From: a virus
Lineage: Duplodnaviria > Heunggongvirae > Uroviricota > Caudoviricetes
Strand: one strand, 5' to 3'
DNA: 64,000 nt
Virus record (IMG/VR): IMGVR_UViG_2524614843_000001
Location: 39,279-103,278 of that record
The notes below the pieces were generated by a model. That model was not told where the DNA came from and searched no databases. It was given only the letters and a program-made list of their open reading frames with translations. Positions 4,914 to 64,000 of this stretch are shown one piece after another. Each line of letters begins with the position of its first letter. Within the stretch, counting starts at the first letter, position 1. Position numbers and translations under genes: made by a program.

Positions 4914-4988
4914 TTGCACAAACAGGAACCGAACAAGTCTCGCTAAACGCACGACTTGGTTTCATATTACGGCGTTTTAATAACATAA

Positions 4989-5006
4989 GTCAACAGTGAC
5001 TTACTA
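4989..5006 (-). promoter_or_regulatory. Class-A motif copy; its TTGACT half-site plus TAATAT 18 bp downstream form a sigma70-like promoter reading toward terS
   Basis: Minus strand reads TAGTAAGTCACTGTTGACTtatgttattaaaacgccgTAATAT. Confidence 0.45.
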
Positions 5007-5008
5007 TC

Positions 5009-7737: not shown

Positions 7738-7740
7738 TAT

Positions 7741-7759
7741 GTCACCTGTGACTTACTTA
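7741..7759 (-). promoter_or_regulatory. Class-A motif copy (GTCAcctgTGACTTACTTA); includes stop codon of ParB-1 and ends 3 nt before ParB-2 ATG
   Basis: Minus reads gcTAAGTAAGTCAcagGTGACataATG. Confidence 0.55.
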
Positions 7760-17524: not shown

Positions 17525-17552
17525 GAGACTGATCTGCCGAGAGTGAGGATGA
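17525..17552 (+). repeat. 28-bp direct repeat (iteron-like) copy 1: GAGACTGatcTGCCgAGAGTGAGGATGa
   Basis: One of 4 same-orientation copies. Confidence 0.7.
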
Positions 17553-17594
17553 CCAGGCTGCGGGACAGGCCGGATACCCGAGGGCGAGTACCGG

Positions 17595-17622
17595 AGAGAC
17601 TGGCGTGCCTAGAGTGGGGATG
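17595..17622 (+). repeat. Iteron-like repeat copy 2
   Basis: GAGACTGGCGTGCCTAGAGTGGGGATGG. Confidence 0.7.
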
Positions 17623-17698
17623 GCTCGTTCCTGAGCCGTGGGTGGCCGCGGCCAGGCTTTCACTCCCAATCCGGAAGTGGCGGACTGCCTGCGGCTCG

Positions 17699-17881: not shown

Positions 17882-17909
17882 GAGACTGGTTTGCCTAGAG
17901 TGAGGATGA
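17882..17909 (+). repeat. Iteron-like repeat copy 3
   Basis: GAGACTGGTTTGCCTAGAGTGAGGATGA. Confidence 0.7.
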
Positions 17910-18030
17910 GGCACTCCGGAAGTGCGTCAAACTGCCATTTTCCCAACTCCAAGGCGCCTCATTCCCAACTGCCTCTGTCATACCCTTCCGACCCATACAC
18001 GCGCACAGGCCGGGACTCGGGAAAGGCCTT

Positions 18031-18448: not shown

Positions 18449-18476
18449 GAGACTGGTGTGACCAGAGTGAGGATGG
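18449..18476 (+). repeat. Iteron-like repeat copy 4 (preceded by TAATCCGGAGTAG half-site)
   Basis: GAGACTGGTGTGACCAGAGTGAGGATGG. Confidence 0.7.
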
Positions 18477-18526
18477 GCAGGACGTGCCAAGGTAGGGAGA
18501 GGAAAGGCACAGCCGAGGGAGCCGGC

Positions 18527-18965: not shown

Positions 18966-19548
18966 GGATAGGTTCTCTTTGTGAAAATGGATGGCGTACC
19001 TCAGTCTGGATGAGGCCTGTCTGTGTGGAAGTATTCTGCCTGAATTGGATGGCGTTTTCTGGTTTGGCCTGTCTCTCTGTCTGTTTCTCTTCCTATCTAT
19101 CTATCGCTCTATCTCTCTGTCTAGCGGGAATGACGTTTCCCTGCGCTCTGCTGCGTTTTCGTGTGTCCGGATGAGTCGTGATATGTCCGGAGCTTGCCCG
19201 CGCGCTCTGTGTGCGATTGTGCGGATTTGTCTGGATGGATGACGAATGTGAGGGAGGATGAATTACCGGAGCAGGCTGATCATGTGTTTTTTGCTGCATT
19301 GATGCTGCATTTCTTCGCGAAGGCTTGAAATTATTGGCATTTTGAATAGGCGGAAATCGAAAGCCTATTTGCATTAAACCATTGTGAATACGACATACGA
19401 GCGTTGATTTGCGGCAGGATTGCGTCACTTTTACAGCAAACAGCGCTGGTTGAATCTTGGAATGCAGATATATTTGGAGGCATGAATAATTAGGTCTTAC
19501 CATATTGCCCATATACACACTTAATCATCTACCATTTGGGAGAATCTC

Positions 19549-26072: not shown

Positions 26073-26213
26073 GACTGGTTACTTCGCGTGAAACTCGATG
26101 CGTGTATTGTGCAACTCAATTCGCGGCAAATAATAAGTCAGCGCGGACTGATTAACAAGCCCCAATTTATGCCCTTGGCACTAGGAAAAACCTGAATAAA
26201 TAGAAAGGCAGAA

Positions 26214-26250
26214 AGAAAGATAGATAGATAAATGGATAGATAGAAAGAAG
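26214..26250. repeat. Class-B motif, tandem copies (AGAAAGATAGATAGATAAATGGATAGATAGAAAGAAG)
   Basis: GATA-repeat family. Confidence 0.6.
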
Positions 26251-26251
26251 G

Positions 26252-26286
26252 CTAAAAAGATAGGCTGGAGCTATCTATCTCCAGCC
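26252..26286 (-). terminator. Terminator hairpin GGCTGGAG-ctatctat-CTCCAGCC followed on minus by TATCTTTTT
   Basis: After stop of 26303..27100. Confidence 0.6.
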
Positions 26287-30035: not shown

Positions 30036-30092
30036 ATCTGGCTTTCTTGCTGTCTTTCTATCTATCTATCGCTCTTTCTAGTAAGCGATCTA

Positions 30093-30467
30093 TCAAGGGG
30101 TGGATTTCACCGTTACAACTGCCGCGAAGGTCACTCTCTGCTCGCAGCTATCCTCCGGAAGCACAGCGGGCAGGCCGTTGAGGTCATAGCCTTTGTGGTA
30201 GTGGTCGTTGAGATCGATGCCGGTGATCATCTGATACAGGTCTCGCACATCGTCCTCGGTGCCGTCGAAGAAGGCCTGCGCAATACCCTCTTCATCCACG
30301 CCGTACAGCGTCCAGAAGGTTGAGAGGTATCCATCCAGCAGATGCGGGTCGGCGAGCACCGTTTTGTCGTCGGCATAGAGCGCCAGCGGCTCGACAAAAG
30401 GCTCTTGGTTTTCATCGAGCAGCTCAACGCAACGGCGAATGTCATAACTGGTGAAGCGCTTAGTCAT
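30093..30467 (-). CDS. Hypothetical acidic protein (124 aa)
   Basis: Start at MTKRFTSY. Confidence 0.5.
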   Translation of the reverse strand: MTKRFTSYDIRRCVELLDENQEPFVEPLALYADDKTVLADPHLLDGYLSTFWTLYGVDEEGIAQAFFDGTEDDVRDLYQMITGIDLNDHYHKGYDLNGLPAVLPEDSCEQRVTFAAVVTVKSTP

Positions 30468-30603
30468 GATCGTTCGTCTCCGCGGGCAACCAGGCATTTG
30501 GGTTAGTGACGGTTTGCCACCAGCTGACCCACGCATAAAGTGCTAGCTGGCCATAAAGCGGGACACCCCAAGCAGAATGAGGAAATAGGAACATAGCTAT
30601 CTA

Positions 30604-30620
30604 CCTTTCTATCTATCTAT
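30604..30620. repeat. Class-B motif copy CTTTCTATCTATCTATC
   Basis: GATA-repeat family. Confidence 0.6.
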
Positions 30621-30631
30621 CAATCTGGTTA

Positions 30632-31129
30632 TCAATCGATGGTGTAGCTGGTACTAGAATCGCCAAAGCTGTACTCAACACCGCCAGCAGATCGCGTAGG
30701 CTCGTCATGCGCGCTGCTAGAACTCCAGGCGCTTGAGGCAACGGTAGGGCTGGGAGAGAGCCCGCTTAATACGTGCCGGTCTGTGGTTTCACGCTCTGAC
30801 GAGCGATCAAGGGCATCGGTCTTGTCGAGCAGATCAATTGCCGCTGCGATGGCTGTGAAAGTCACTGCCGGTTCGTCGGTATCCGGCTTGGTCTGGGCAA
30901 ACCCAAATGAGGTTGATCGACTCGAAACTGTCGGCCGCGGAGTAGGCCGATCAAGGATTTCCAGTAACGCTTTATGCTCGGCATCCGAATCGACCAGTGC
31001 TCGGGTTGTGGCTACAGCCGGTTGGCTAGGTCGAGGTGTGGTCGCACGCTTGGGCGGCTGGGTGGCGATCGGCAAATCTGCTTTACGACGGAACAGCCGC
31101 TTGAAGAACGCTTTGATTGACAGTCTCAT
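30632..31129 (-). CDS. Hypothetical low-complexity (P/T/S-rich) protein
   Basis: ATGA overlap with upstream gene. Confidence 0.4.
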   Translation of the reverse strand: MRLSIKAFFKRLFRRKADLPIATQPPKRATTPRPSQPAVATTRALVDSDAEHKALLEILDRPTPRPTVSSRSTSFGFAQTKPDTDEPAVTFTAIAAAIDLLDKTDALDRSSERETTDRHVLSGLSPSPTVASSAWSSSSAHDEPTRSAGGVEYSFGDSSTSYTID

Positions 31130-31437: not shown

Positions 31438-31488
31438 AACTCACCTATTACTAACTTTGGTTAATGGGAAATAGGGCGATATTGGCTG

Positions 31489-31566
31489 TCTATCTATCTA
31501 TCGCTCTATCTGTGATTGATATTCTCTAGCTGCTTTTCTGGCTATCGATGGGAGATAGATAGAAAG
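31489..31566. repeat. Two class-B motif arms in inverted orientation (TCTATCTATCTATC ... GAGATAGATAGAAAG) flanking a 50-bp spacer
   Basis: Palindromic arrangement. Confidence 0.6.
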
Positions 31567-33670: not shown

Positions 33671-33753
33671 GTTGCTCTCCTGTTTGTGAGTCTTTCGATG
33701 ATGTGAGAGGAACAAAGGGGCGACGAGCGCCCCTTCTTCATTGACGCGGGGCG

Positions 33754-34545
33754 TTACTTGGCCGGTACGTTGACCATGCCTTTAAAATCAGCCGGCAGGA
33801 TGATCACGGACGAGCCATCCTTGCGCTCGGCGAACTTATTCAGTGCCTTCACGTATTCCATCTGCAGCAGGTTCGGGGTCAGGGACTTCGCCAGCTGCTC
33901 GTTGGCCAGCGCTTGCTCGCGGGCAATATCGACGCGCTTCTGAGCCAGTTCGAGGTCTTTCTGCGCAGCTACAGCTTTGCGGTTCGCGTCCTCGATGGAT
34001 TGGTCAGTCAGCATGGTGCTGATGACGATTTCCTTGATCTGGAAGGTGTCGGGGTCGCGGGCATTCAGCTCAGCCTGCAGCTTCTCCTGAATGGCTTTGC
34101 GGATTTCGTCACGCTTTTGATGTGCGGTCAGCGAGTCGAAGCGCGAAACCACATCCATCGCAGCGGTGCTGGCCAGTCGAGCAACCAGTTTTGAGCCAGG
34201 GATGCACTCGCCATCCACGCAGTCATATTGGTTGCGGTACTTCACCTTGAGCTCGGCAATCGTCTCCGGCTTCACCGAGTAGATCACGGCAATGTCGAAG
34301 TCCTTGAAGGCCAGCTTGTCGCTACCCTGCACCTTGAGGTCAGGCAGTTCGAGGGTCACGTCCTTCGCCGTGAACTTCTCCACGTCATTGAACGGCTCGA
34401 AGTACATGCCGACCGGCATTTCAGCCATGACGACGTTACCGTTGAAGGAGTTGGTTTTTACACCGACCTCACCGGTCGAGATCTTGCCGCAGGCCGTTAA
34501 GGCAACTGCGAAGCAGATGGTGAGCAAGCTGGTGATGATGCGTTT
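33754..34545 (-). CDS. SPFH/Band-7 (prohibitin/flotillin-like) lipoprotein
   Basis: Lipobox LTACG, SPFH core followed by A/Q/E-rich coiled coil. Confidence 0.65.
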   Translation of the reverse strand, partial: KRIITSLLTICFAVALTACGKISTGEVGVKTNSFNGNVVMAEMPVGMYFEPFNDVEKFTAKDVTLELPDLKVQGSDKLAFKDFDIAVIYSVKPETIAELKVKYRNQYDCVDGECIPGSKLVARLASTAAMDVVSRFDSLTAHQKRDEIRKAIQEKLQAELNARDPDTFQIKEIVISTMLTDQSIEDANRKAVAAQKDLELAQKRVDIAREQALANEQLAKSLTPNLLQMEYVKALNKFAERKDGSSVIILPADFKGMVNVPAK

Positions 34546-34550
34546 CATAC

Positions 34551-34751
34551 TTAAAGTACCCATGTGAAGGTTTTGAACAAATCGATAGCGACAATGAGCG
34601 CTATCACTACAGCGGCAGTCGCCAGTAGAGCCAGAGCTAGGTTTTTCAGGACACTCAGGCTCTTATTGGCCACGCCTTTGCGCTTAAAGCTGCTGGCGAC
34701 AATCCAGCCCAGGCTCAAAAGCACAATGAGAACGAGGAAGCCTCTAATCAT
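34551..34751 (-). CDS. Small 2-TM membrane protein immediately upstream of SPFH gene (NfeD-like partner?)
   Basis: 66 aa, two hydrophobic helices; ATG lies inside class-A motif. Confidence 0.45.
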   Translation of the reverse strand: MIRGFLVLIVLLSLGWIVASSFKRKGVANKSLSVLKNLALALLATAAVVIALIVAIDLFKTFTWVL

Positions 34752-34760
34752 GTCATCACT
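34742..34760 (-). promoter_or_regulatory. Class-A motif copy (GTCAtcacTGACTTACTTA); contains stop of upstream gene and start ATG of downstream gene
   Basis: Minus reads gcaTAAGTAAGTCAgtgaTGACATGatt. Confidence 0.55.
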
Positions 34761-34767
34761 GACTTAC

Positions 34768-35049
34768 TTATGCGGCGATGCTTTCAGACTTCTTTTTCGG
34801 GCCGCGCGGCGCACCAAAAGTCACTTTCAGCGCTTCCTGCAGCTCGTCGCCAATGGCAGCGAGACGAGTGGCCAACACTTCCGGAGTGATTGCGCCTGTG
34901 TCAGAGTCGGCAAACACCTTTTCAGCCAGTAGGCCTTGCAGGTTTTCAGTGCGCTTCACCTTCTTGCTGTGCTTCACAGCTTCGGCATGTGATGGGTGGT
35001 GTGAGCCATCGATGGCTTTGAACATTTGAACTTTAGCGATACCGGTCAT
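34768..35049 (-). CDS. Hypothetical protein (93 aa)
   Basis: TGGAGT RBS. Confidence 0.5.
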   Translation of the reverse strand: MTGIAKVQMFKAIDGSHHPSHAEAVKHSKKVKRTENLQGLLAEKVFADSDTGAITPEVLATRLAAIGDELQEALKVTFGAPRGPKKKSESIAA

Positions 35050-35751: not shown

Positions 35752-35813
35752 CTTTTCAGTTCCTTGTTTGAGTTAGTCAGTAATTAGATGATGCGTTTTA
35801 TTGTCCGGCGTAT

Positions 35814-35832
35814 GTCATCTATGACTTACTTA
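35814..35832 (-). promoter_or_regulatory. Class-A motif copy (GTCAtctaTGACTTACTTA)
   Basis: Motif match; preceded by 12-bp-stem hairpin 35839-35876 and another copy at 35882-35899. Confidence 0.55.
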
Positions 35833-37385: not shown

Positions 37386-37440
37386 ATCTGCTCCTTGATT
37401 GATAACACTGACAGGATAAAGCGCATTCAGTGGGCATTAT

Positions 37441-37459
37441 GTCAGCCGTGACTTAATAA
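37441..37459 (-). promoter_or_regulatory. Class-A motif copy (GTCAgccgTGACTTAATAA)
   Basis: About 45 nt upstream of RBS of 37173..37385. Confidence 0.5.
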
Positions 37460-37825: not shown

Positions 37826-37844
37826 GGGTTTTCCTTCTTTCTCG

Positions 37845-37861
37845 CTTTCTATCTATCTATC
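37845..37861. repeat. Class-B motif copy CTTTCTATCTATCTATC in trx 5' leader
   Basis: Minus reads GATAGATAGATAGAAAG cg AGAAAGAAGGAAAAccc ATG. Confidence 0.6.
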
Positions 37862-37878
37862 TTGCTATTTAGCTAGCC

Positions 37879-38889
37879 TTAATCATCATCGCCCCAATCC
37901 AGCGCACCGCTCTTATACGAAACCACTTTGGTCTCGAAGAAGTTACGCAGGTTGCCGTTGATGGAGCTGTAATCCAAGAACCAAGGAATCGGATTGCTCA
38001 CCATATAGATTGGCTCCATACCAAGCATTACCGCACGGTCATCAACCAGCCACTTCACAAAGTCGGTAATGATGGCCGGCGTCAGGCCCATTACACCCTT
38101 CTCGACGATGTGGCAGCCCCAGGTGATTTCCAGATTGCCGGCGTTGATCAGAAGTTGGCGAGCGTCGCGCCAGAAGTCGGCATCAAAGATCTCGGGGTTC
38201 TCTTCGCGCAGTGTCCGGAACATCGACAGGAAGAGCGCCAAATGCGACTCCTCGTCCCTCTGTATGAGCTTAATTCCTTCGGCAGTACCAGGCATCTTGG
38301 AATTGCGCGCCAGCGCGTAGAAGGTGGCAAAGGCCGAGTAGAAGTAGATGCCCTCCAGCGCGATATTCGAGACCACTGCGAGCGCGAAATTGCGCGGGCT
38401 ATAGTCGTTACCCAAGATCGCGGACTGCGCCAGAATGTGCTCGTTCTTGGCTGCGAGAATGTCGTCGCGCATGAACAGGGTGTAAATGCTGCTCGGGTCG
38501 TCGGTGATCGCTTCGATGATGGTTGAGTAGGCCTTCACATGCAGCGCTTCTTCCCAAGTCTGCCGGCTGATGGCCATGCGGACTTCCGGACTGGTGATGT
38601 AGGGCGCAATGTTGTCCGCTAGGTTGTGGAACTGGATACCGTCGAGATTGGATACGAAGGCTAGTGCGCTGTCGAAAGCGTGACGCTCACCGGTGGTCAG
38701 ATCACCACCCTTGTACTGCATAACGTCGCGGCCAAGTGCCATCTCCTTGACCGTCCAGTTATTGCTTTCCATTGTTTCGATTAACTCCCAAGCCCATTTG
38801 TGCTTGAGTGGTGATACGCACATCAGACGATCGTGGGAGCCGCCGATGAGCCGGCGATTGTTGACTGATTCGATGATGGCTTGTTGCAT
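37879..38889 (-). CDS. nrdB: Ribonucleotide reductase class I small (beta) subunit
   Basis: 336 aa; di-iron ligand motifs incl. DEESHLALF. Confidence 0.85.
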   Translation of the reverse strand: MQQAIIESVNNRRLIGGSHDRLMCVSPLKHKWAWELIETMESNNWTVKEMALGRDVMQYKGGDLTTGERHAFDSALAFVSNLDGIQFHNLADNIAPYITSPEVRMAISRQTWEEALHVKAYSTIIEAITDDPSSIYTLFMRDDILAAKNEHILAQSAILGNDYSPRNFALAVVSNIALEGIYFYSAFATFYALARNSKMPGTAEGIKLIQRDEESHLALFLSMFRTLREENPEIFDADFWRDARQLLINAGNLEITWGCHIVEKGVMGLTPAIITDFVKWLVDDRAVMLGMEPIYMVSNPIPWFLDYSSINGNLRNFFETKVVSYKSGALDWGDDD

Positions 38890-39046: not shown

Positions 39047-39835
39047 ATGAATGTGAAATCGCTATTTTGGTCTCGTAGAAGGGTCAAAGAGCGCAATGCC
39101 AGGGCGCTTTCTCTACAGCCAAGCAGGAATCAGTCCGACACTTTGGTTGTGAATGTGATTGCCGATCTGTCACAGGCTGATCTTTGCGGTCAAAATATTG
39201 CTCAGCAGGATTCGACAAGTAAAGCGCCAAAAAGATTGCACATGTCTAGGGTTATTGGAAAAAGAGGCGATGGTCGTCAGCGCAGCTCAGTTGTAAATAA
39301 ATTGAGCTATGCCTCTCCCTTTGATGCTACAAGCTTTTCGGTAGAGCTGGATTCAAACGGCGAGCTGAAAATATACCATCCAAAGAAAGCGCATCCGGTA
39401 CGTCCTTCAAACGATGAACTCTTGTACTACAAGGGGCGCCCAATCTCATTAGACCATGCAGGCGACATCAAGCAGAGCATCGCTTTTGCCAAGATGATTG
39501 AAGAAGGGCTCGACACGAAAACCATAAGGGCTCTTTTGGATGTAGGATTTACGCAGACTGAGCTCGATGTGGTCATACCTGCACGCACTCTGAAACGCAG
39601 GCTTGTATCTGATCAACAGCTGACCCGTGAAGAGTCGGCAAAATTGGTGCGATACGTTCGCACCTTCTCATCGGCTCTTGAGATCTTTGGCGATAAGGAA
39701 AAAGCGCTGGCATGGTTAAGAGCCCCCAAGAAGAAGCTGGATGGCAAAACGCCGCTCGATCTTCTGTCAAACGAAATAGCGGCTCAAGTAGTTGAGGATT
39801 ACCTTGGACAAATTCAGTCAGGGTACTTCGCATGA
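39047..39835 (+). CDS. Xre/MbcA/ParS-type antitoxin (C-terminal HTH + DUF2384 domain) with unusual about 110-aa N-terminal extension
   Basis: C-terminal ...GKTPLDLLSNEIAAQVVEDYLGQIQSGYFA typical of RES-partner antitoxins; GGAGG RBS; lower GC than surroundings; start uncertain. Confidence 0.55.
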   Translation: MNVKSLFWSRRRVKERNARALSLQPSRNQSDTLVVNVIADLSQADLCGQNIAQQDSTSKAPKRLHMSRVIGKRGDGRQRSSVVNKLSYASPFDATSFSVELDSNGELKIYHPKKAHPVRPSNDELLYYKGRPISLDHAGDIKQSIAFAKMIEEGLDTKTIRALLDVGFTQTELDVVIPARTLKRRLVSDQQLTREESAKLVRYVRTFSSALEIFGDKEKALAWLRAPKKKLDGKTPLDLLSNEIAAQVVEDYLGQIQSGYFA

Positions 39836-43598: not shown

Positions 43599-43653
43599 GG
43601 CGATATTATTCTGTAACAATCAAATGTAAGCAAACCTGCCTGGCAAATATTAT

Positions 43654-43672
43654 GTCATTGATGACTTACTTA
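43654..43672 (-). promoter_or_regulatory. Class-A motif copy (GTCAttgaTGACTTACTTA)
   Basis: In 370-bp AT-rich gap upstream of resolvase gene. Confidence 0.55.
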
Positions 43673-49913: not shown

Positions 49914-49930
49914 GGTTCTCTCCTTTGCTA

Positions 49931-49949
49931 ATTCACCACTTACTTACTT
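49931..49949 (-). promoter_or_regulatory. Degenerate class-A motif copy (TTCAccacTTACTTACTTA)
   Basis: Between lysozyme stop and membrane protein start. Confidence 0.4.
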
Positions 49950-50436
49950 AAACGGGCAATAAAAATAGCTGACGCTCGGCGGTACGACGGCGCACCAGTC
50001 CAGGCTGACGCTTACCCATTGCAAAAACCCACTTGTTAAACTCCTCCGCGGCCTTGTAGTAGTTACCGGAATTGAGGTGACGGAGCAGGGTGCTATCGCC
50101 CAATCCTTCCGCGATGTTGTCCTGATCAATATCCGGACCCACATTGAAGGTGAAGGATACGATGGCGTCGAACTGGTTCTGATTCAGAGGAACGCGAACC
50201 AGCTTGAGTACCGCCTTCTCAATTCTCAACAAGTCCTTGTCGAAGATTTCTTCGGCTTGAGCGGCGGTTATCCCTTTCATCATCCACTCGTCGCCAGCTT
50301 CAATCTTGTGGCCCCAGCCTATCGTCCAGTATCCGGCCGGACACTTATAAGGCTTTAAGGCCACCTGATCGGATTGCTCAAATTTCTTAATGATCGCTCG
50401 GCCGCGCTGACCGGTTCTCATCGCAGTGCTTGCCAT
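49948..50436 (-). CDS. Glycoside hydrolase family 24 lysozyme (T4/lambda-type endolysin)
   Basis: Start at MASTAM with AGGAGG RBS; FEQ...YKCPAGYWTIGWGH, GL..RR..E..LF motifs. Confidence 0.75.
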   Translation of the reverse strand: MASTAMRTGQRGRAIIKKFEQSDQVALKPYKCPAGYWTIGWGHKIEAGDEWMMKGITAAQAEEIFDKDLLRIEKAVLKLVRVPLNQNQFDAIVSFTFNVGPDIDQDNIAEGLGDSTLLRHLNSGNYYKAAEEFNKWVFAMGKRQPGLVRRRTAERQLFLLPV

Positions 50437-50458
50437 TAAATCCTCCTGCTTATCTATA

Positions 50459-50478
50459 GTCACTGATGACTTACTTTA
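50459..50478 (-). promoter_or_regulatory. Class-A motif copy (GTCActgaTGACTTACTTTA)
   Basis: Upstream of lysozyme. Confidence 0.55.
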
Positions 50479-53026: not shown

Positions 53027-53087
53027 GAGGTTCGGGTTCCTGTTCTTGTTTTGCTGGAATCCTAGCGCCCCTTGCTTTGGATAGCAA

Positions 53088-53108
53088 GAAAGATAGATAG
53101 ATAGAAAG
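53088..53108. repeat. Class-B motif copy AGAAAGATAGATAGATAGAAAG
   Basis: GATA-repeat family. Confidence 0.6.
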
Positions 53109-53114
53109 ACAGAG

Positions 53115-53141
53115 CAACAGAAAACCCCGCGCAGGGCGGGG
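53115..53141 (-). terminator. Terminator after recA-like gene (CCCCGC-gcagg-GCGGGG + TTTTCTGTT on minus)
   Basis: Hairpin plus T-rich tail. Confidence 0.6.
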
Positions 53142-55120: not shown

Positions 55121-55122
55121 AT

Positions 55123-55146
55123 GTCACCTATGACTTACTTACTTAA
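55123..55146 (-). promoter_or_regulatory. Class-A motif copy, extended (GTCAcctaTGACTTACTTACTTAA); supplies TAA stop of SSB gene
   Basis: Best consensus match. Confidence 0.6.
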
Positions 55147-56766: not shown

Positions 56767-58002
56767 CTAGTTCACAGCTTCCGCCACACGGCGGAATACT
56801 TCATTGAGCGTGGCTTGCTTGCTGTCATCGAACAGCACTTGACCAGGCGAAATGCCGACGATGATCGTGGCGTTGTACTTGGCCGAGAAAATGGCGGTAC
56901 CAGGCTCGGGCTTGCGCGCATCCGGCAGGAAGTAGCGGGTCGCGGCAGAGCCCAGCGTGACGATCACTGGCGGCGCCAGAATCTCGATCTCCCGCTCGAT
57001 GTACTGCGAGCAGGCGGCGATCTGTGCGTCGGCAAGGAACTTCTCGTCCTTCGGCTTGGGCGACTTCACCAGCGCAGTCCAATACCCGTTATCGAAGGTC
57101 AGATAGTTCACGCCCAGCGCGGTGCGGGTTACATCCTCCATCGAGTCGGTCAGCACCTTGCCATTGCGCTCGTCACGGAAGCTTGGCGCGTCGATCACTG
57201 CCATGAACTTCGGCTGCCGACCGATGCGGGGCGACGGATGCACACCGCCCGCCAGTGAGCAGGCGGTGCATTGCTTGGCGTCGCGCAGAGTGATCATCAG
57301 CTTTTCCTTCACGAACTTGCCGGCTTCGATGTTGCGATCAGCCTTCACCACGCCGGAGATCAGGCCAGGCAACAGCTCGATCTGATCTTTCAGGCGCTCG
57401 TTGTGAAGTGCTGGAAGCTGTGAGGGTTCGATGCCGGCAAAGGCGCCGACACGATCAAGGCAGTCGCGCACTTTGACGTTGACCTTCGACTTGTTCACGC
57501 GCGCCTCGAAGTTCTCTTTCGAGGTGAATGGGCCAGCAGGCAACGCCTCGCATACCAGATTGCCCTTCTTGTCGAACTCTTCGACCTTTGCCGAATTGCG
57601 CGCCTGCACGATCAGCTCTGCAGTGGTGGTCGAGATACCCTTCACGCGATTGAAGGGCATAACCAGCGTGACTTTGCTGCGCGCCACGTCATAGCCGATC
57701 TCGAAGCGGTCAGCGCTGGAGAGGTTCACATCGGGCGGAACCAGCAGCAGACCGGCGTTCTCAGCGTCACGCACCAGACCAGGCAGCTTGTCCTCGTCCA
57801 GAACAGACAGACAGGCAGCGTAGAACTCAGCCGGATAGTTCACTTTCAGCCACATGGACTGATAGCTGATCAGCGAGTAGGCAACGGCATGACTTTTGTT
57901 AAAACCATAGGCGCCGAAGGCCATAATCTGACTCCAGAGAGCCTCTGCGTCCGCTTTGCTCATGCCGTTTTCGAGTACGCGGCTTGATACGATCTTGGCC
58001 AT
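56767..58002 (-). CDS. dnaE: DNA polymerase III alpha (DnaE) C-terminal fragment fused to a degenerate family-4 UDG-like domain
   Basis: GAYGFNKSHAVAYSLISYQ (DnaE fingers hallmark); C-terminal about 180 aa align to family-4 uracil-DNA glycosylase (CTACSL, VIVTLGSAATRYFL) but GEGPG motif is IDAPS and catalytic His replaced. Confidence 0.75.
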   Translation of the reverse strand: MAKIVSSRVLENGMSKADAEALWSQIMAFGAYGFNKSHAVAYSLISYQSMWLKVNYPAEFYAACLSVLDEDKLPGLVRDAENAGLLLVPPDVNLSSADRFEIGYDVARSKVTLVMPFNRVKGISTTTAELIVQARNSAKVEEFDKKGNLVCEALPAGPFTSKENFEARVNKSKVNVKVRDCLDRVGAFAGIEPSQLPALHNERLKDQIELLPGLISGVVKADRNIEAGKFVKEKLMITLRDAKQCTACSLAGGVHPSPRIGRQPKFMAVIDAPSFRDERNGKVLTDSMEDVTRTALGVNYLTFDNGYWTALVKSPKPKDEKFLADAQIAACSQYIEREIEILAPPVIVTLGSAATRYFLPDARKPEPGTAIFSAKYNATIIVGISPGQVLFDDSKQATLNEVFRRVAEAVN

Positions 58003-58289: not shown

Positions 58290-60656
58290 TTACAGGGCGA
58301 GCTCAACCCCGCGCGCAATCGCTTCCTCGACAGTCAGCAGTTCATCGCTATCCACCGCCTTGTACCGCGTTGCACGATGGACTGTGAGCGTCCTGCCGTC
58401 ATCGAGCGTGACTTCAATCTGACCGAGTTCAGCGCCGGAAATGAATGACGCGCCAATCTTGGCCATCTTGTCCATATCCTTCTTACCTATGGCCTTGCGG
58501 AGCCCGTCTGCGCCCGCCATCGTGAAGCCGCACAGATCTCGGGCGACCTGCATGACTTCCTCTTGGTACACGATGACGCCATAGGTATCCTTGAGCGCGT
58601 CCTCGCAGAGCGGGTGCGGATAGCTGACCGGCTCCAACCCTTGCTTGCGGGCGACAAACTGATCGAGCAGACCGGAATCCAGCGGGCCAGGACGATAAAG
58701 CGCCGTCGCTGCCGCAATATCCTCGAAGGTCAGCGCCTCGTAGCTCGCCAGATCTTTGAGCAGCTTCATCATGCCGCCCGACTCGAACTGGAACACGCCG
58801 ATGGTCTTGCCTTGCCCGAAGCCCTCCAGCGTGATCGTGTCATCGAGGGGCAGATCGAGCAGATCGGGCGTTTTGCCGTGCCGCTCCTTGATGTAGTCCA
58901 GAACCAGCGAAGTCAGATCGAGCGTGGTCAGCCCGAGAATATCCATCTTCACCAAGCCCATGTCCTCGACGGTGCGCTTGTCCCAATTCGTTGTCGGTTG
59001 GCCAGAGCGCATTTCCACGACCGCGCGCTCGTTGATCGGTACGCCGGCAATCACAATGCCTGCAGCGTGACGACCCAGCGACCGGTTGTGATCTTCCAGC
59101 GCCAGGGAATGCTGCCAGAGCTCCGGATAGCGCTCGGAATAGGTCTTAATTGCCCCGACTTGCTCAGCGGCTTCTGCCATCGGGGCGACCATGCCATGCT
59201 CTTTCGGGTAGAGCTTCGTGCATTCCAGATCGCCATTTGGTACCTCGAACACGCGACCCACATCACGGATTGCAGAGGCGCCGGCCAGCGTCGTGAAGTT
59301 GGAGATGCCCGCCACGTAATCAGCACCGAATTTCTCGGTAATGTGGTTGATGACGAGCTCGCGGCGAGTGGCCTGAAAATCCAAGTCCGCGTCAGGCAAG
59401 TCCAGACGTTCTGGATTGATGAAGCGCTCGAAAATCAGACCGTGCCGGATAGGGTCAACATCCGTGATACCGAGCAGGAAAGCGACCAGAGAACCACCCA
59501 CGGAACCCCGACCTGGCCCGACAGCGACGCCGTTTTGTTTCGCCCAGCGGGTGATGTAGCGCGCCAGCAGGAAGTAGCCGCAGAAGCCCAGCTTGGACAG
59601 CACGCCAAGCTCGTATTTGAGCCGCTCCATGTAATGCGGGAGATCTGCCTTGCTCGGCTTGTAGCCGAAGGAGGAGCCCTCAACCAGACGCTCGACAAAG
59701 GCGCGCTTACATAGCTCAACCAGCGCCAACTCTTCCTTCTCGACGAGTTTGGGTAATGACACTGGCCATTTTGACCAGGTGTAATCACACATACTCTCGA
59801 CAACCGCCATGTTCCTGATTGCACCCTTGAGCCGCTCCATATCAAGCGCCTCATCGAACAGCTTGAGATAGGTCTCGCCAAAGGCTTTGCATTCCGCGGC
59901 GAACTCCGCAGGACTGAGGATGCTCAGGTTGCCGGAGATCTGCGAAGGCGCAATCCGCCAGCCATCCTTCATCTTGTTGTTGCTGCACACAGCCGCGTAC
60001 ACATCGAGGGAGTTACTTTGTGACGGGTCTGCTAGCAGCGCAGGGCGCGTCGCTACGACCGGTATACCCGTTGCGTGGGCATATCCGAGCACATCGCGGC
60101 CAATGCGCGCAAACAGCGGATTATTGACGACAGGAAGCTCAATAAAGAGCGCGTGGGGCTGCGCAGCCCGCAGTTTGTCCAGACGCTCATAAGCTGTCGC
60201 TTGATCGACTTTGTAGAGCGCGCCCAGCAGATCACCAGTCATCACGACCAGACCATCCGGTGCAGACGCGATATGCTCCAGCACCTCGTCGAAACTGAGG
60301 CGCGGGAAGTAGTAGAAGTGGCTTTCCGAGTTAGCGAGGCTCAGCAGCTTGAAGATCGCCTTGAGCCCGCTTTCGTTACGTACCAACAACCGCAAAGTGA
60401 ATGAGCGCGGACGCTTCACCTCTGCAGATTTCTCGGTCGGGTCACACAGCACGACCTCAACTGTCACGCCGATGATTGGCTTGATGCCGGCGTCCTTCGC
60501 TGCAGTCATCAGCGCCGGCATTCCTGAGACGGTCATCTTGTCCGTAATGGCAATGGCCGTCAGTCCCTTCTCGACCGCCTGCGCCACCGCTTTCTTTACT
60601 GATAGCAGTGAGCCGCCAATCGTGAAGTCACTACGCACACCAAGAGCAACTTTCAT
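58290..60656 (-). CDS. dnaE: DNA polymerase III alpha (DnaE) N-terminal fragment (PHP, palm, thumb, part of fingers)
   Basis: 788 aa; PHP domain start MKVALGVRSDF, palm motifs; homology ends about 40 aa before stop. Confidence 0.8.
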   Translation of the reverse strand: MKVALGVRSDFTIGGSLLSVKKAVAQAVEKGLTAIAITDKMTVSGMPALMTAAKDAGIKPIIGVTVEVVLCDPTEKSAEVKRPRSFTLRLLVRNESGLKAIFKLLSLANSESHFYYFPRLSFDEVLEHIASAPDGLVVMTGDLLGALYKVDQATAYERLDKLRAAQPHALFIELPVVNNPLFARIGRDVLGYAHATGIPVVATRPALLADPSQSNSLDVYAAVCSNNKMKDGWRIAPSQISGNLSILSPAEFAAECKAFGETYLKLFDEALDMERLKGAIRNMAVVESMCDYTWSKWPVSLPKLVEKEELALVELCKRAFVERLVEGSSFGYKPSKADLPHYMERLKYELGVLSKLGFCGYFLLARYITRWAKQNGVAVGPGRGSVGGSLVAFLLGITDVDPIRHGLIFERFINPERLDLPDADLDFQATRRELVINHITEKFGADYVAGISNFTTLAGASAIRDVGRVFEVPNGDLECTKLYPKEHGMVAPMAEAAEQVGAIKTYSERYPELWQHSLALEDHNRSLGRHAAGIVIAGVPINERAVVEMRSGQPTTNWDKRTVEDMGLVKMDILGLTTLDLTSLVLDYIKERHGKTPDLLDLPLDDTITLEGFGQGKTIGVFQFESGGMMKLLKDLASYEALTFEDIAAATALYRPGPLDSGLLDQFVARKQGLEPVSYPHPLCEDALKDTYGVIVYQEEVMQVARDLCGFTMAGADGLRKAIGKKDMDKMAKIGASFISGAELGQIEVTLDDGRTLTVHRATRYKAVDSDELLTVEEAIARGVELAL

Positions 60657-61255: not shown

Positions 61256-61264
61256 TATTACTAG

Positions 61265-61284
61265 CTCACCTATGACTTACTTAC
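61265..61284 (-). promoter_or_regulatory. Class-A motif copy (cTCAcctaTGACTTACTTAC); contains stop codon of AAA+ gene
   Basis: Motif match. Confidence 0.55.
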
Positions 61285-62549: not shown

Positions 62550-62572
62550 AGCGGTTCCTTGTGCGTGATTGA

Positions 62573-62590
62573 TAGTAAGTCATAACTGAC
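62573..62590 (+). promoter_or_regulatory. Class-A motif copy in inverted orientation (TAGTAAGTCAtaacTGAC on plus)
   Basis: Only copy whose TAAGTA flank is on the plus strand. Confidence 0.45.
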
Positions 62591-62656
62591 TTTTGCGAAT
62601 GATAAGAGATTGGAGCAGGGAAAGTCGAGGGGTCGATCGCTAACCCCTCGAAGCAT

Positions 62657-64000
62657 TTAGTCTTTCAGTAGCAGCTGGGACAGCTCGCTCACGACGCGCT
62701 CGGGCAGCTCTTCCAGCTTGTTCACAACCACGCTTCGGTTGTAGAACCGCTGCACGGCATTACTCATGATGCCGATGCCGATCACTTCCACGAATTTTTC
62801 GATTTCCTGCACCTTAGATGCCAGATGCGCATTCGCCACCGCATACTTGCAAGAAGGGATATGAAATGCTGGCGCCCCGTCAGACAGCACGATCAAGATG
62901 TGTCGGGTCGCTTTTTGCCGCACCAAACGTCGCGCGCCAATCATGACCGATTCCCCATCGATGTTATTGAGCAGCGGAATGTCATGACTGGCCGCCGCGA
63001 TCATGTTGATCTTGTGCTCACGGTTGAAGCGCTCATCAAAGGTCTTGAAGATTGGCATGTTGATCGGCTCAATCCGGTCGAAGTAATCTTTATTTGGCTC
63101 CGCATCCCAGCCTTCAACCAACTCTTTAGGCAGTTCGCTCGTTGTAAAGCCGATAACCTCATTCGGAATCCGAAGGCGATCAAGCGTCTCAGCCAATGCC
63201 CACGCGGCCTGCATTGCCAGCAAGACTTTGGAGCCACTCATTGAGCCCGACATATCAACCATGAGCTGCACAGCCACAGAGCGCGCTGTAGCCTGCACCT
63301 TCTCGCGGAATACCCGCGTATCACCGGTTTTCAGACGATGGAGTGCTGCGCCATGAATGCGCCCTTTCTTCTGTCCTCCATACCAAAACACCTGATCGCG
63401 CGCCGACACTGCCCGTTCAAGACGCTTTTGCATTTGACCGGCCATGTGCCTGATCTGCTCTTCCATGCCATGAATTTCATTTTCGGCCGACTCTGCCGCA
63501 CGACTACTGATGCGGACGGGCTCAATGCGGTCATACTCCGTACTAAACACCTGGTACGGCGAATCTTTGATTTCATCTAGCGCCATCGAGCCGATCAGAT
63601 TAGCCATTGACTCGTCGAACTCGGGAATTTCCTCTTTGCTCATGTCCAGATCGCGGGGCAGACCGACCTTTGAAGAACGATCTTCCTCTTCTTCGGTCTC
63701 TGTCGGTGTCGGCACAGTCGCGTTTTCATCTTCGGACTCTTCTGGCGCCTCGCTCGGTTCTGGAGCCGGTTCTTCTGAGCCTGTGAAATCGCCCTCTCCT
63801 GATTCTGGCGCGGACTCGTTTGGCTCAGGCTCTTCTGGCGATTCGGGCTCAAGATCTCCCTCCGATGATTCTGGCTCCTCCGGATGCGGTTCTTCGCTCT
63901 CAGGTTCCGGTTCCGCCTCTGGTTCAACCTCAGACTCCGGTTCGGAAGGCTGTTCTTCGGACTCGGGTTCGGACTCGGGTTCGGACTCGGGTTCGGACTC
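62657..64000 (-). CDS. von Willebrand factor A (CobT-like) protein with N-terminal acidic (ESEP)n repeat region; 5' end beyond window
   Basis: MIDAS motif DMSGSMSG; frame stays open upstream of the listed GTG at 63715 through a Glu/Ser/Pro tandem repeat to the window end. Confidence 0.7.
   Translation of the reverse strand, partial: ESEPESEPESEPESEEQPSEPESEVEPEAEPEPESEEPHPEEPESSEGDLEPESPEEPEPNESAPESGEGDFTGSEEPAPEPSEAPEESEDENATVPTPTETEEEEDRSSKVGLPRDLDMSKEEIPEFDESMANLIGSMALDEIKDSPYQVFSTEYDRIEPVRISSRAAESAENEIHGMEEQIRHMAGQMQKRLERAVSARDQVFWYGGQKKGRIHGAALHRLKTGDTRVFREKVQATARSVAVQLMVDMSGSMSGSKVLLAMQAAWALAETLDRLRIPNEVIGFTTSELPKELVEGWDAEPNKDYFDRIEPINMPIFKTFDERFNREHKINMIAAASHDIPLLNNIDGESVMIGARRLVRQKATRHILIVLSDGAPAFHIPSCKYAVANAHLASKVQEIEKFVEVIGIGIMSNAVQRFYNRSVVVNKLEELPERVVSELSQLLLKD

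Follow-up and report, generated by a model that had tools for sequence, protein, structure and literature searches.

Why does a tailed phage encode a membrane-scaffold protein of the SPFH (stomatin/prohibitin/flotillin/HflKC) type, and what is the very small membrane protein whose gene stands directly in front of it? These questions are raised by a locus in a 64,000-nucleotide (nt) stretch of DNA, hereafter the window, of the Caudoviricetes virus record IMGVR_UViG_2524614843_000001 (positions 39,279 to 103,278 of that record), in which a gene for a 66-amino-acid (aa) protein with two transmembrane (TM) segments, the hairpin, is followed on the same strand by the gene of a 264-aa SPFH/Band-7 lipoprotein. 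In this paper, we have analysed both genes, their relatives in other phages and their surroundings, and we argue with moderate confidence, for the architecture as well as for the partnership, that they represent a conserved phage two-gene cassette made up of an inner-membrane hairpin protein and a lipid-anchored SPFH protein on the periplasmic side.

Phage-encoded SPFH proteins are not new in themselves. Band 7 open reading frames (ORFs) were tabulated for T4-like phages in 2006 (PMC1524935) and for Vi01-like phages in 2011 (PMC3220722). Our tblastn searches find the SPFH protein in 200-259 deposited phage genomes, mostly those of Ackermannviridae (Vi01-like, phiEa2809), with further records from Acinetobacter, Staphylococcus and Bacillus phages, cyanophages and crAss-like phages, and many of the deposited homologues are labelled 'SPFH domain band 7 family protein' or 'lipoprotein'. 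In addition, at least 495 IMG/VR viral contigs encode a relative, and BFVD holds many viral Band-7 models. The original prediction for this locus, made from the letters of the DNA alone, had described SPFH proteins as normally cellular; this was overstated, as hundreds of phage genomes, among them those of Ackermannviridae and T4-like phages, already carry an annotation of this very lipoprotein family (PHROG 200). As to function, a 2026 paper states that the reason for the presence of SPFH proteins in phage 'remains unclear' (PMC13239085), and a full-text literature search returned no functional study of the phage SPFH lipoprotein family. The overlooked and more interesting fact is the conserved small partner, the mini-hairpin, whose pairing with phage SPFH proteins appears to be undescribed in the literature searched.

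A mini-gene conserved in front of phage SPFH genes

The hairpin gene occupies positions 34551-34751 of the minus strand, stop codon included, and is defined by its ORF, by an identical protein in NCBI, by hydropathy and by an AlphaFold2 (AF2) model. Its TAA stop ends 2 nt ahead of the SPFH ATG at 34548, the two genes lying head to tail on one strand, an arrangement that is best read as a translationally coupled pair. The exact 66-aa protein, MIRGFLVLIVLLSLGWIVASSFKRKGVANKSLSVLKNLALALLATAAVVIALIVAIDLFKTFTWVL, is found in NCBI without a name, on the same contig as the SPFH protein.

Across the 84 related loci that could be evaluated, 76 contain a two-TM ORF of 52-75 aa (58 aa being the commonest length) immediately upstream of the SPFH gene on the same strand. 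The hairpin gene ends between 1 nt inside and 22 nt before the SPFH start, one locus with a mis-assigned SPFH start excepted, and four of the eight exceptional loci hold a truncated or frameshifted hairpin gene. The loci contribute 52 distinct hairpin sequences, and the hairpin is the only neighbour that is conserved across lineages. Under a uniform and cruder gene calling, a two-TM ORF was found upstream of 49 of 79 SPFH genes, as against 4 of 540 in a background set made up of every remaining gene in these loci that encodes 100 aa or more.

The pairing recurs in phages of very different kinds. In Vi01, the gene Vi01_109c (69 aa, PHROG 11680 'unknown function') stands upstream of the SPFH gene and encodes the same design of two TM segments and a basic loop, and an unannotated 64-aa two-TM ORF takes this place in phiEa2809 (positions 2322-2516 of locus L001). 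A 90-aa two-TM protein precedes the SPFH protein in a T4-like Acinetobacter phage, an unannotated 61-aa ORF overlaps the SPFH start in the crAss-like phage cr106_1 (positions 1310-1495 of locus L099), and cyanophage B3 has a 54-aa hairpin upstream of an SPFH protein that bears an uncleaved N-terminal TM anchor. In Gram-positive phages, a small protein with a single TM segment is encoded in the hairpin position. Furthermore, on a chromosomal element of Ralstonia pickettii, the genes of a 66-aa hairpin and of an SPFH protein (274 aa, 38% identical) are adjacent, with the kinase gene on the other side. The cassette in the window is ordinary for its family.

The hairpins diverge far faster than the SPFH proteins, and a BLASTP comparison of the window's hairpin with that of Ralstonia gives E=3. 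When aligned by hhalign, a profile of the other hairpins matches the window's hairpin in register with 84% probability and E=7e-6, values that TM composition may flatter. With the hairpin profile, 104 clusters of 57-66 aa are recovered, none of which has a Pfam domain or a meaningful name, and the N-termini (M-I/S-K/R...) and C-termini (...LF) of the hairpins are conserved.

A scan of genome contigs also revealed five cellular or metagenome-assembled genome (MAG) loci, in Giesbergeria and Simplicispira, that encode a TM-anchored SPFH protein and no hairpin; this number is a lower bound, the scan patterns being ones that did not match the window's own sequence. These cellular copies of an otherwise viral SPFH clade may be domesticated. 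In L090, L091 and L092 (Giesbergeria spp. and a Burkholderiaceae MAG), the SPFH gene adjoins that of a two-TM sensor-like protein of 620-650 aa.

An SPFH protein with a lipoprotein signal

The SPFH gene lies at positions 33754-34548 of the minus strand, including the stop codon at 33754-33756, and its assignment comes from Pfam, PHROG, AF2 and Foldseek. The longest ORF runs from 33754 to 34563 (269 aa), with an in-frame ATG at 34563, five codons above the ATG at 34548. The latter is likely the true start, because the resulting 264-aa form (MKR...) is identical to the NCBI entry 'SPFH domain-containing protein [Chitinibacter tainanensis]', and because its MKR start agrees with the N-termini of the homologues.

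Read directly from the sequence, positions 34489-34548 of the minus strand encode a type II (lipoprotein) signal peptide, MKRIITSLLTICFAVALTA, together with the codon of Cys20 (34489-34491). The N-terminus has the form MKR-IITSLLTICFAVA-LTAC-GK, i.e. a basic n-region, a hydrophobic h-region and the lipobox L17-T18-A19-C20, in agreement with the pattern [LVI][ASTVI][GAS]C. The lipobox Cys is invariant in an alignment with phage homologues (A1), and a lipobox is present in at least 83 of the 106 full-length family representatives, the remainder of which have an uncleaved hydrophobic anchor. The residue at position +2 after the Cys is G in the window's protein and T, G or S across the family, with Asp occurring only once. 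The SPFH domain begins 2-3 residues past Cys20, leaving no disordered tether, and the conserved first SPFH strand (TGEVGV) stands a few residues downstream of the lipobox Cys.

The Pfam Band_7 profile (PF01145) matches residues 27-218 of the 269-aa form over positions 2-176 of its 176, scoring 46.2 bits where the cut-off is 23.6 (E=7e-12), and PHROG 200 'lipoprotein' is matched by residues 3-252 at E=2.6e-38. In a search among 1.84 billion representatives, the family profile retrieves 534 clusters (50% identity, E<=1e-3), and by such profile comparison the phage SPFH proteins form a compact, distinct and sharply delimited clade. An AF2 monomer model, built on an alignment of 18 sequences, has a moderate overall predicted local distance difference test (pLDDT) score of 63.5, with 65-90 in the core and a C-terminal tail that is unmodelled or of low pLDDT. 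It places an alpha/beta domain up to residue 181, a helix at residues 183-222 and another at 227-241, ahead of the C-terminal tail. When this model was compared with the PDB by Foldseek, human stomatin was the top match (E=1e-9), followed by prohibitin, HflK/C, erlin, QmcA-YbbJ and flotillin (E from 1e-9 to 1e-4), with a TM-score of ~0.8 to isolated stomatin SPFH domains; the best-ranked PDB matches are all cage-forming SPFH proteins. The tie to solved structures is one of fold comparison only, because a PDB sequence-profile search with the SPFH family gave no real match. The protein belongs to the SPFH superfamily and to PHROG 200.

On the minus strand, the SPFH (Band 7) alpha/beta domain (residues ~22-181, from Pfam, the strands and helices at 64-181 of the AF2 model, and Foldseek) is encoded at 34006-34485, the long helix CC1 (residues 183-222, 40 aa) at 33883-34002 and the helix CC2 (residues 227-241) at 33826-33870, both helices being taken from the AF2 model. 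The C-terminal segment (residues 245-264; 33757-33816) carries the motif VIILPADFKGMVNV.K, conserved in two alignments (A1 and A2), and is a candidate cap-forming strand by analogy with the solved SPFH cages. As modelled, the protein has the full domain set of the cage-forming SPFH proteins, namely SPFH, CC1, CC2 and the conserved C-terminal segment. Extrapolated to the 40-residue CC1, a linear regression from the literature that relates the number of subunits to the length of CC1 (y = 0.1782x + 10.22; PMC12624060) gives ~17 subunits, near the 16-mer of stomatin.

The hairpin protein

In the hairpin protein, TM1 (residues ~4-22, GFLVLIVLLSLGWIVASSF) is encoded at 34686-34742 and TM2 (residues ~38-58, followed by an 8-residue C-tail) at 34578-34640 of the minus strand; hydropathy delimits these two segments, and the AF2 helices cover residues 2-22 and 31-65. 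The loop between them (residues 23-37, KRKGVANKSLSVLKN; 34641-34685, minus strand) contains five K/R and no D/E, and is predicted to be cytoplasmic by the positive-inside rule. Across the hairpin family, the mean loop charge is 4.5 K+R versus 1.4 D+E and the termini are almost uncharged, so that the predicted topology is one with the loop in the cytoplasm and both termini in the periplasm. The C-tails are 0-8 residues long and nearly uncharged, most members ending right after TM2.

Scans of the 66-aa protein against Pfam, PHROG, NCBIfam and PADLOC gave no match, nor did tblastn against phages, and a word-indexed protein search returned the protein itself only. A Pfam scan of 32 hairpins produced scattered weak matches of the sort that TM composition tends to give, none of them to an NfeD, DUF2065/YjeT or holin family, and the PADLOC defence models had no match at E<=1 for either the hairpin or the SPFH protein.

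Membership in known families of small phage or SPFH-associated membrane proteins was considered and rejected. An NfeD protein would likewise be encoded next to an SPFH gene on the same strand, but PF01957 is matched neither by the 66-aa protein nor, at E<=0.1, by the 32 members, and an OB-fold domain is excluded because the protein ends 8 residues after TM2, without room for it. A class II holin or pinholin would fit in size and in its two TM segments, but the charged C-tail, the holin profile and the linkage to an endolysin are all missing. A two-component spanin (Rz/Rz1) would require a long periplasmic coiled-coil on its inner-membrane subunit and a small outer-membrane lipoprotein; the hairpin lacks any periplasmic domain, the lipoprotein is a 264-aa SPFH protein, and no spanin PHROG matches either of the two. 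The hairpin is not a member of the NfeD, holin or spanin families, the defining features of which were tested for and failed.

For the two proteins themselves, the original prediction proved to be sound. It had proposed an SPFH/Band-7 protein and named profile searches failing to support this fold as the evidence that would overturn the proposal; the Band_7 profile matches above its threshold, and PHROG 200 as well as the AF2/Foldseek comparison agree. The lipobox that it had noticed is confirmed by the n-region, h-region and LTAC reading and by the invariant Cys, its small two-TM neighbour is recovered by hydropathy and AF2 with the lipobox-bearing SPFH gene directly downstream, and its view that the partner is not a normal NfeD also holds.

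Comparison with known systems

Vi01_108c of Salmonella phage Vi01 and NW77_081 of Erwinia phage phiEa2809 belong to the same family as the window's SPFH protein, with 33-37% identity over ~95% of the length. They have the same lipobox Cys, a length of ~260-270 aa, the same N-terminal (TGEVGV) and C-terminal motifs, and also an upstream two-TM mini-gene. The phage type and the host differ, as we are dealing here with an SSU5/RHEph10-like element of ~103 kb from Chitinibacter, and the neighbourhood is one of DNA metabolism here, whereas it is a spanin/LysM/sie-annotated region in Vi01 and phiEa2809.

In the SPFH-NfeD operons (E. coli QmcA-YbbJ, 8z5g; YqiK-YqiJ; archaeal stomatin PH1511-PH1510), an SPFH gene is likewise co-transcribed with the gene of a small membrane partner. 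However, the partner here is a 66-aa hairpin without an NfeD domain or OB-fold, and its gene comes first. QmcA and YqiK are TM-anchored proteins with cytoplasmic SPFH domains, whereas the phage SPFH protein is predicted to be exported and lipid-anchored on the periplasmic side. Stomatin (the human 16-mer, 9oh9/9z7u; P. horikoshii PH1511) is the best fold match and has the same SPFH, CC1, CC2 and C-terminal architecture, although the sequence identity is only ~18%; it is a single-gene homo-oligomer, and the CC1 length predicts a similar number of subunits for the phage protein. Stomatin has its own N-terminal intramembrane hairpin, in place of which the phage system has an N-terminal lipid anchor and a hairpin as a separate polypeptide. 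The HflK/HflC-FtsH system has in common with the cassette the periplasm-facing SPFH domains, the cage-type fold and a historical link to phage, but HflK and HflC are two paralogues, each with an N-terminal TM helix, that form a hetero-oligomer, and both features are absent here. As for the hairpin, class II holins/pinholins (S21) and T4 Imm resemble it in having ~60-80 aa and two TM helices; it differs from them in its lack of a family match, of a charged C-tail and, in the window, of an endolysin neighbour, and in its opposite predicted topology.

A possible mode of action and its alternatives

In the reading that we favour, the SPFH lipoprotein would be exported, acylated on Cys20 and retained on the periplasmic leaflet of the inner membrane. 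Inner-membrane residence is most likely, because no tether follows the Cys and because the partner sits in the inner membrane; it is also favoured by the TM-anchored family members, which are bound to the inner membrane and keep the hairpin (cyanophage B3). Through CC1, CC2 and the C-terminus, the protein might oligomerise into a stomatin-like dome of ~16-18 subunits, a proposal built on the monomer prediction and the extrapolation from CC1 length. The hairpin would be inserted with its termini out and its loop in, under the dome or in its rim, as a membrane-embedded partner or client. The two could then be regarded as a 'split' SPFH protein, in which the hairpin would take the operon slot that NfeD has in cells and would perhaps supply the membrane-embedded role of the N-terminal TM segment or hairpin of cellular SPFH proteins. 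Such a complex may fence off patches of the membrane in the infected cell, and its likeliest role would be the control of the envelope during infection, by which the membrane is stabilised against premature collapse or a superinfecting phage is excluded. Envelope control is favoured because the cassette is located among genes of nucleotide metabolism and replication, and not among lysis genes; the DNA-metabolism neighbourhood also suggests an early or middle expression of the cassette. Any specific physiological role we nevertheless hold to be doubtful at best. The roles put forward by the original prediction, namely a remodelling of host membrane microdomains, an effect on FtsH-type proteolysis, on lysis timing or on superinfection exclusion, are likewise hypotheses, between which the data make no choice except to disfavour a classical lysis cassette.

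A number of observations weigh against the favoured reading. The AF2 monomer is only moderate (pLDDT 63.5), with N- and C-terminal parts that are poorly predicted, and since a termini-out hairpin exposes almost nothing to the periplasm, the two proteins could make contact only within or at the membrane. The residues found at +2 (G, T or S, and Asp once) predict outer-membrane sorting under the enterobacterial +2 rule, and an HflK/C-like protein of a P. multocida prophage, a possible homologue, has been reported in outer-membrane vesicles (OMVs; PMC9872710). The equivalence of the hairpins is mainly one of position and topology, because their sequence similarity is weak, and the Fisher p of ~1e-46 for 49 of 79 against 4 of 540 overstates the independence of the loci, because these are phylogenetically related. 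Moreover, some family members have no hairpin, namely those of Acinetobacter phage Ab15, of the loci L007, L021 and L079, and the cellular Giesbergeria copies.

The sorting signals bear most directly on a reading in which the SPFH protein would work without the hairpin as a Lol-sorted outer-membrane lipoprotein, in superinfection exclusion, receptor masking or vesiculation, like T5 Llp or Cor; the hairpin would then either exclude phages on its own from the inner membrane or be nothing more than the product of a co-transcribed gene. The near absence of Asp at +2 agrees with this, and so do the P. multocida prophage protein, which was found in OMVs with TLR1/2 signalling as a triacylated lipoprotein would give (PMC9872710), the low level of a Vi01-like homologue in a virion preparation (PMC10892097), which OMV carry-over would explain, and the superinfection-exclusion-annotated genes nearby in Vi01 and phiEa2809. 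On the other hand, the tight coupling to an inner-membrane hairpin, which accompanies the SPFH gene in ~90% of cases even in distant lineages, points to a joint function, and the TM-anchored members of the cyanophage B3 kind retain the hairpin in what is necessarily an inner-membrane setting. In Lol sorting, disordered tethers after the Cys appear to favour efficient export to the outer membrane, and none is found here between the Cys and the first SPFH strand. We regard this reading as fairly unlikely. Alternatively, the cassette could mimic HflK/C, its dome forming around host FtsH and sequestering or re-tuning the protease, with the hairpin as an adaptor or decoy substrate and with the aim of shielding phage membrane proteins or biasing a lysis/lysogeny-type decision. 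The SPFH domains of HflK/C are periplasmic, on the same side as the exported lipoprotein, and HflK/C-FtsH structures are among the fold matches (9cz2, 7vhq, 7wi3); interference of phages with FtsH has a precedent in lambda CII/CIII and the hfl locus (cited in PMC10269572), and a lifestyle decision is conceivable because the relatives of the element's polymerase include the phage-plasmid SSU5. Such a mimic is nonetheless unlikely: the PDB profile search carried no HflK/HflC signal and stomatin ranks above HflK/C in the fold comparison, the phages have one SPFH gene where HflK/C takes two and its product lacks an N-terminal TM helix, many members come from strictly virulent phages (Ackermannviridae, T4-like and crAss-like), and with ~17 subunits the dome would not reach the size of the 24-mer around FtsH hexamers.

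Another reading takes the hairpin as a viroporin- or pinholin-like channel that would be capped by the SPFH dome as by a lid, timing depolarisation or lysis. It draws on the size and two-TM layout that the hairpin has in common with class II holins/pinholins, on the regulation of channels by stomatin-type SPFH proteins, of which a stomatin-aquaporin complex is among the fold matches (9zd2), and on the Ackermannviridae, in which genes for an Rz-like spanin and for a LysM-type protein with an endolysin annotation are only 1-2 kb away from the pair. What makes it quite unlikely is that the charged cytoplasmic C-terminal tail usual in holins is absent, that the predicted termini-out topology is opposite to the N-in/C-in of pinholins, that the 32 members gave no holin Pfam or PHROG match except a weak one to XhlA (E=0.027), and that the neighbours in the window and in most loci belong to DNA metabolism and not to lysis. 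A lysis cassette in the classical sense, considered in view of the Ackermannviridae context, was unsupported in the window and in most loci, and no lysis genes are found among the cassette's neighbours in the window; a role of this kind is disfavoured. It is hardly credible, in the end, that the 66-aa ORF is no gene, or its adjacency accidental, with the SPFH lipoprotein as the only functional product. This reading could cite that no database family includes the ORF, that its ATG lies within a repeated motif (see below) and is not preceded by a clear Shine-Dalgarno sequence, and that its equivalents are unannotated in phiEa2809, crAss cr106_1 and others. However, position, strand, length and topology are kept in 76 of 84 loci with 52 distinct sequences (background 4/540), start and stop are coupled within -1 to 22 nt, the hairpin profile finds its 104 clusters of 57-66 aa, and the N- and C-termini of the hairpins are conserved. 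This comparative record of the ORF already contradicts the non-gene reading.

A repeated motif and other putative transcription signals

The original prediction had placed the start codon of the hairpin gene inside a repeated 'class-A' motif, and this is correct: a perfect copy of the motif, TAAGTAAGTCAGTGATGACAT, is located at 34750-34770 of the minus strand and finishes on the A and T of the hairpin ATG (34751-34749). With its leading TAA, this copy also supplies the stop codon for the 93-aa ORF upstream, and such an overlap with a stop is frequent among the copies. A repeat finder groups positions 34746-34770 with nine other sites (family D4). Searched as TAAGTAAGTCA-N4-TGACAT with at most three mismatches, the motif has 12 matches in the window, whereas 0.05 are expected, and 0 of 100 shuffles had more than one match. 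Besides the copy at the hairpin gene (34750-34770), those on the minus strand are at 2931-2951, 4987-5007, 7739-7759, 35812-35832, 37439-37459, 43652-43672, 49930-49950, 50457-50477, 55121-55141 and 61263-61283, and one is on the plus strand at 62572-62592; 11 of the 12 are on the gene-coding strand. The motif carries an inverted GTCA/TGAC core and stands ahead of structural genes (portal) as well as replication genes. In the Ralstonia relative, a related sequence, AAGTCA-N4-TGAC-TATAAT, occurs four times in 16 kb.

A role of the motif as a Shine-Dalgarno or intercistronic element was rejected, because the copies stand anywhere from -7 to +120 nt from the next start codon, and those far from it have a separate Shine-Dalgarno sequence downstream. 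A sigma-70 scan at the motif site by the hairpin gene detected no classical promoter. The motif is probably a phage-specific promoter or regulator site, i.e. a signal at the transcript level. If it were a promoter with a downstream start site, the copy at the hairpin gene could not drive the translation of the full hairpin.

Just past the SPFH stop, at 33710-33739 of the minus strand, a GC-rich stem-loop is followed by UUUGUU (dG -18.5 kcal/mol, z=-2.3). This stem-loop could be a terminator that closes the hairpin-SPFH two-gene unit; the evidence for this is weak, because a consensus terminator scan did not pick up the stem-loop.

Genomic context of the cassette

The genes upstream of the cassette encode ThyX, a 216-aa ORF and a 93-aa ORF, and those downstream encode a dNMP-kinase-like ATPase and an RNase T-like exonuclease. 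The neighbourhood also includes ribonucleotide reductase (RNR) and an HU-like protein. The window further encodes the portal protein, the large terminase, both the large and the small subunit of RNR, an SbcCD-like nuclease, a RuvC-like resolvase and a CobS-like ATPase. No tRNA genes are found anywhere in the window. A DnaE-type (pol III alpha-like) DNA polymerase is encoded on the minus strand by two ORFs (56767-58002 and 58290-60656) lying ~290 nt apart, which match the PHROG 405 profile consecutively. The closest relatives of the polymerase in tblastn are those of Rhizobium phage RHEph10 (45%) and the phage-plasmid SSU5 (39.5%).

A syntenic relative of the region is located in Ralstonia pickettii CP104381.1 (1,015,301-1,031,501; locus L100), inside a chromosome record of 3.49 Mb, and has in common with the window RNR, ThyX, the kinase, the hairpin, the SPFH protein and the RNase T-like exonuclease. 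Its location suggests either an ability of this type of phage to integrate or a merging of the element into the chromosome during assembly. By contrast, the element to which the window belongs forms a 103-kb contig of its own among the assembled contigs of a Chitinibacter isolate, which is compatible with an SSU5-like plasmid-prophage lifestyle.

Several other repeats were noticed in the window. Degenerate intergenic repeats with a 4-nt/8-nt period (TCTATCTATCTATCGCTCT...) occur at seven places and in both orientations: tracts of the CTATCTATCTATC type, on the plus strand, are at 19066-19129, 30039-30098, 30591-30637, 31483-31511 and 37827-37881, and tracts of the GATAGATAGATA type at 26187-26262 and 53072-53123. 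A 33-nt repeat, GAGACTG...TGCC.AGAGTGAGGATG, is present in four copies within 1 kb (17525-17557, 17596-17628, 17882-17914 and 18449-18481), and a perfect 12-nt tandem repeat, TTCGGACTCGGG, at 63956-64000, runs off the end of the window.

Implications

It is conceivable, if fairly improbable, that the lipid-anchored dome gates or insulates an oligomer of the hairpin, the latter being a viroporin-like channel or a membrane-active effector, and that the cassette is thus a minimal 'cage plus client' system. If this were true, the phage would control membrane potential or permeability, and could thereby block superinfecting DNA, defuse those abortive-infection effectors of the host that target the membrane, or time lysis; no earlier SPFH complex would have had just one client defined by genetics, and the action of SPFH cages could be studied on a tractable model of two genes. 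SPFH proteins occur universally, and numerous cage structures have been determined since 2022, while their mechanism is still debated; in this respect, the cassette offers a simple two-gene system that lends itself to deletion, expression and imaging. It is also widespread: the phages that carry it include Ackermannviridae employed in biocontrol, T4-like Acinetobacter phages, crAss-like phages and cyanophages. For the annotation of such genomes, the mini-ORF upstream of PHROG 200 genes, which is often missed today, should be called.

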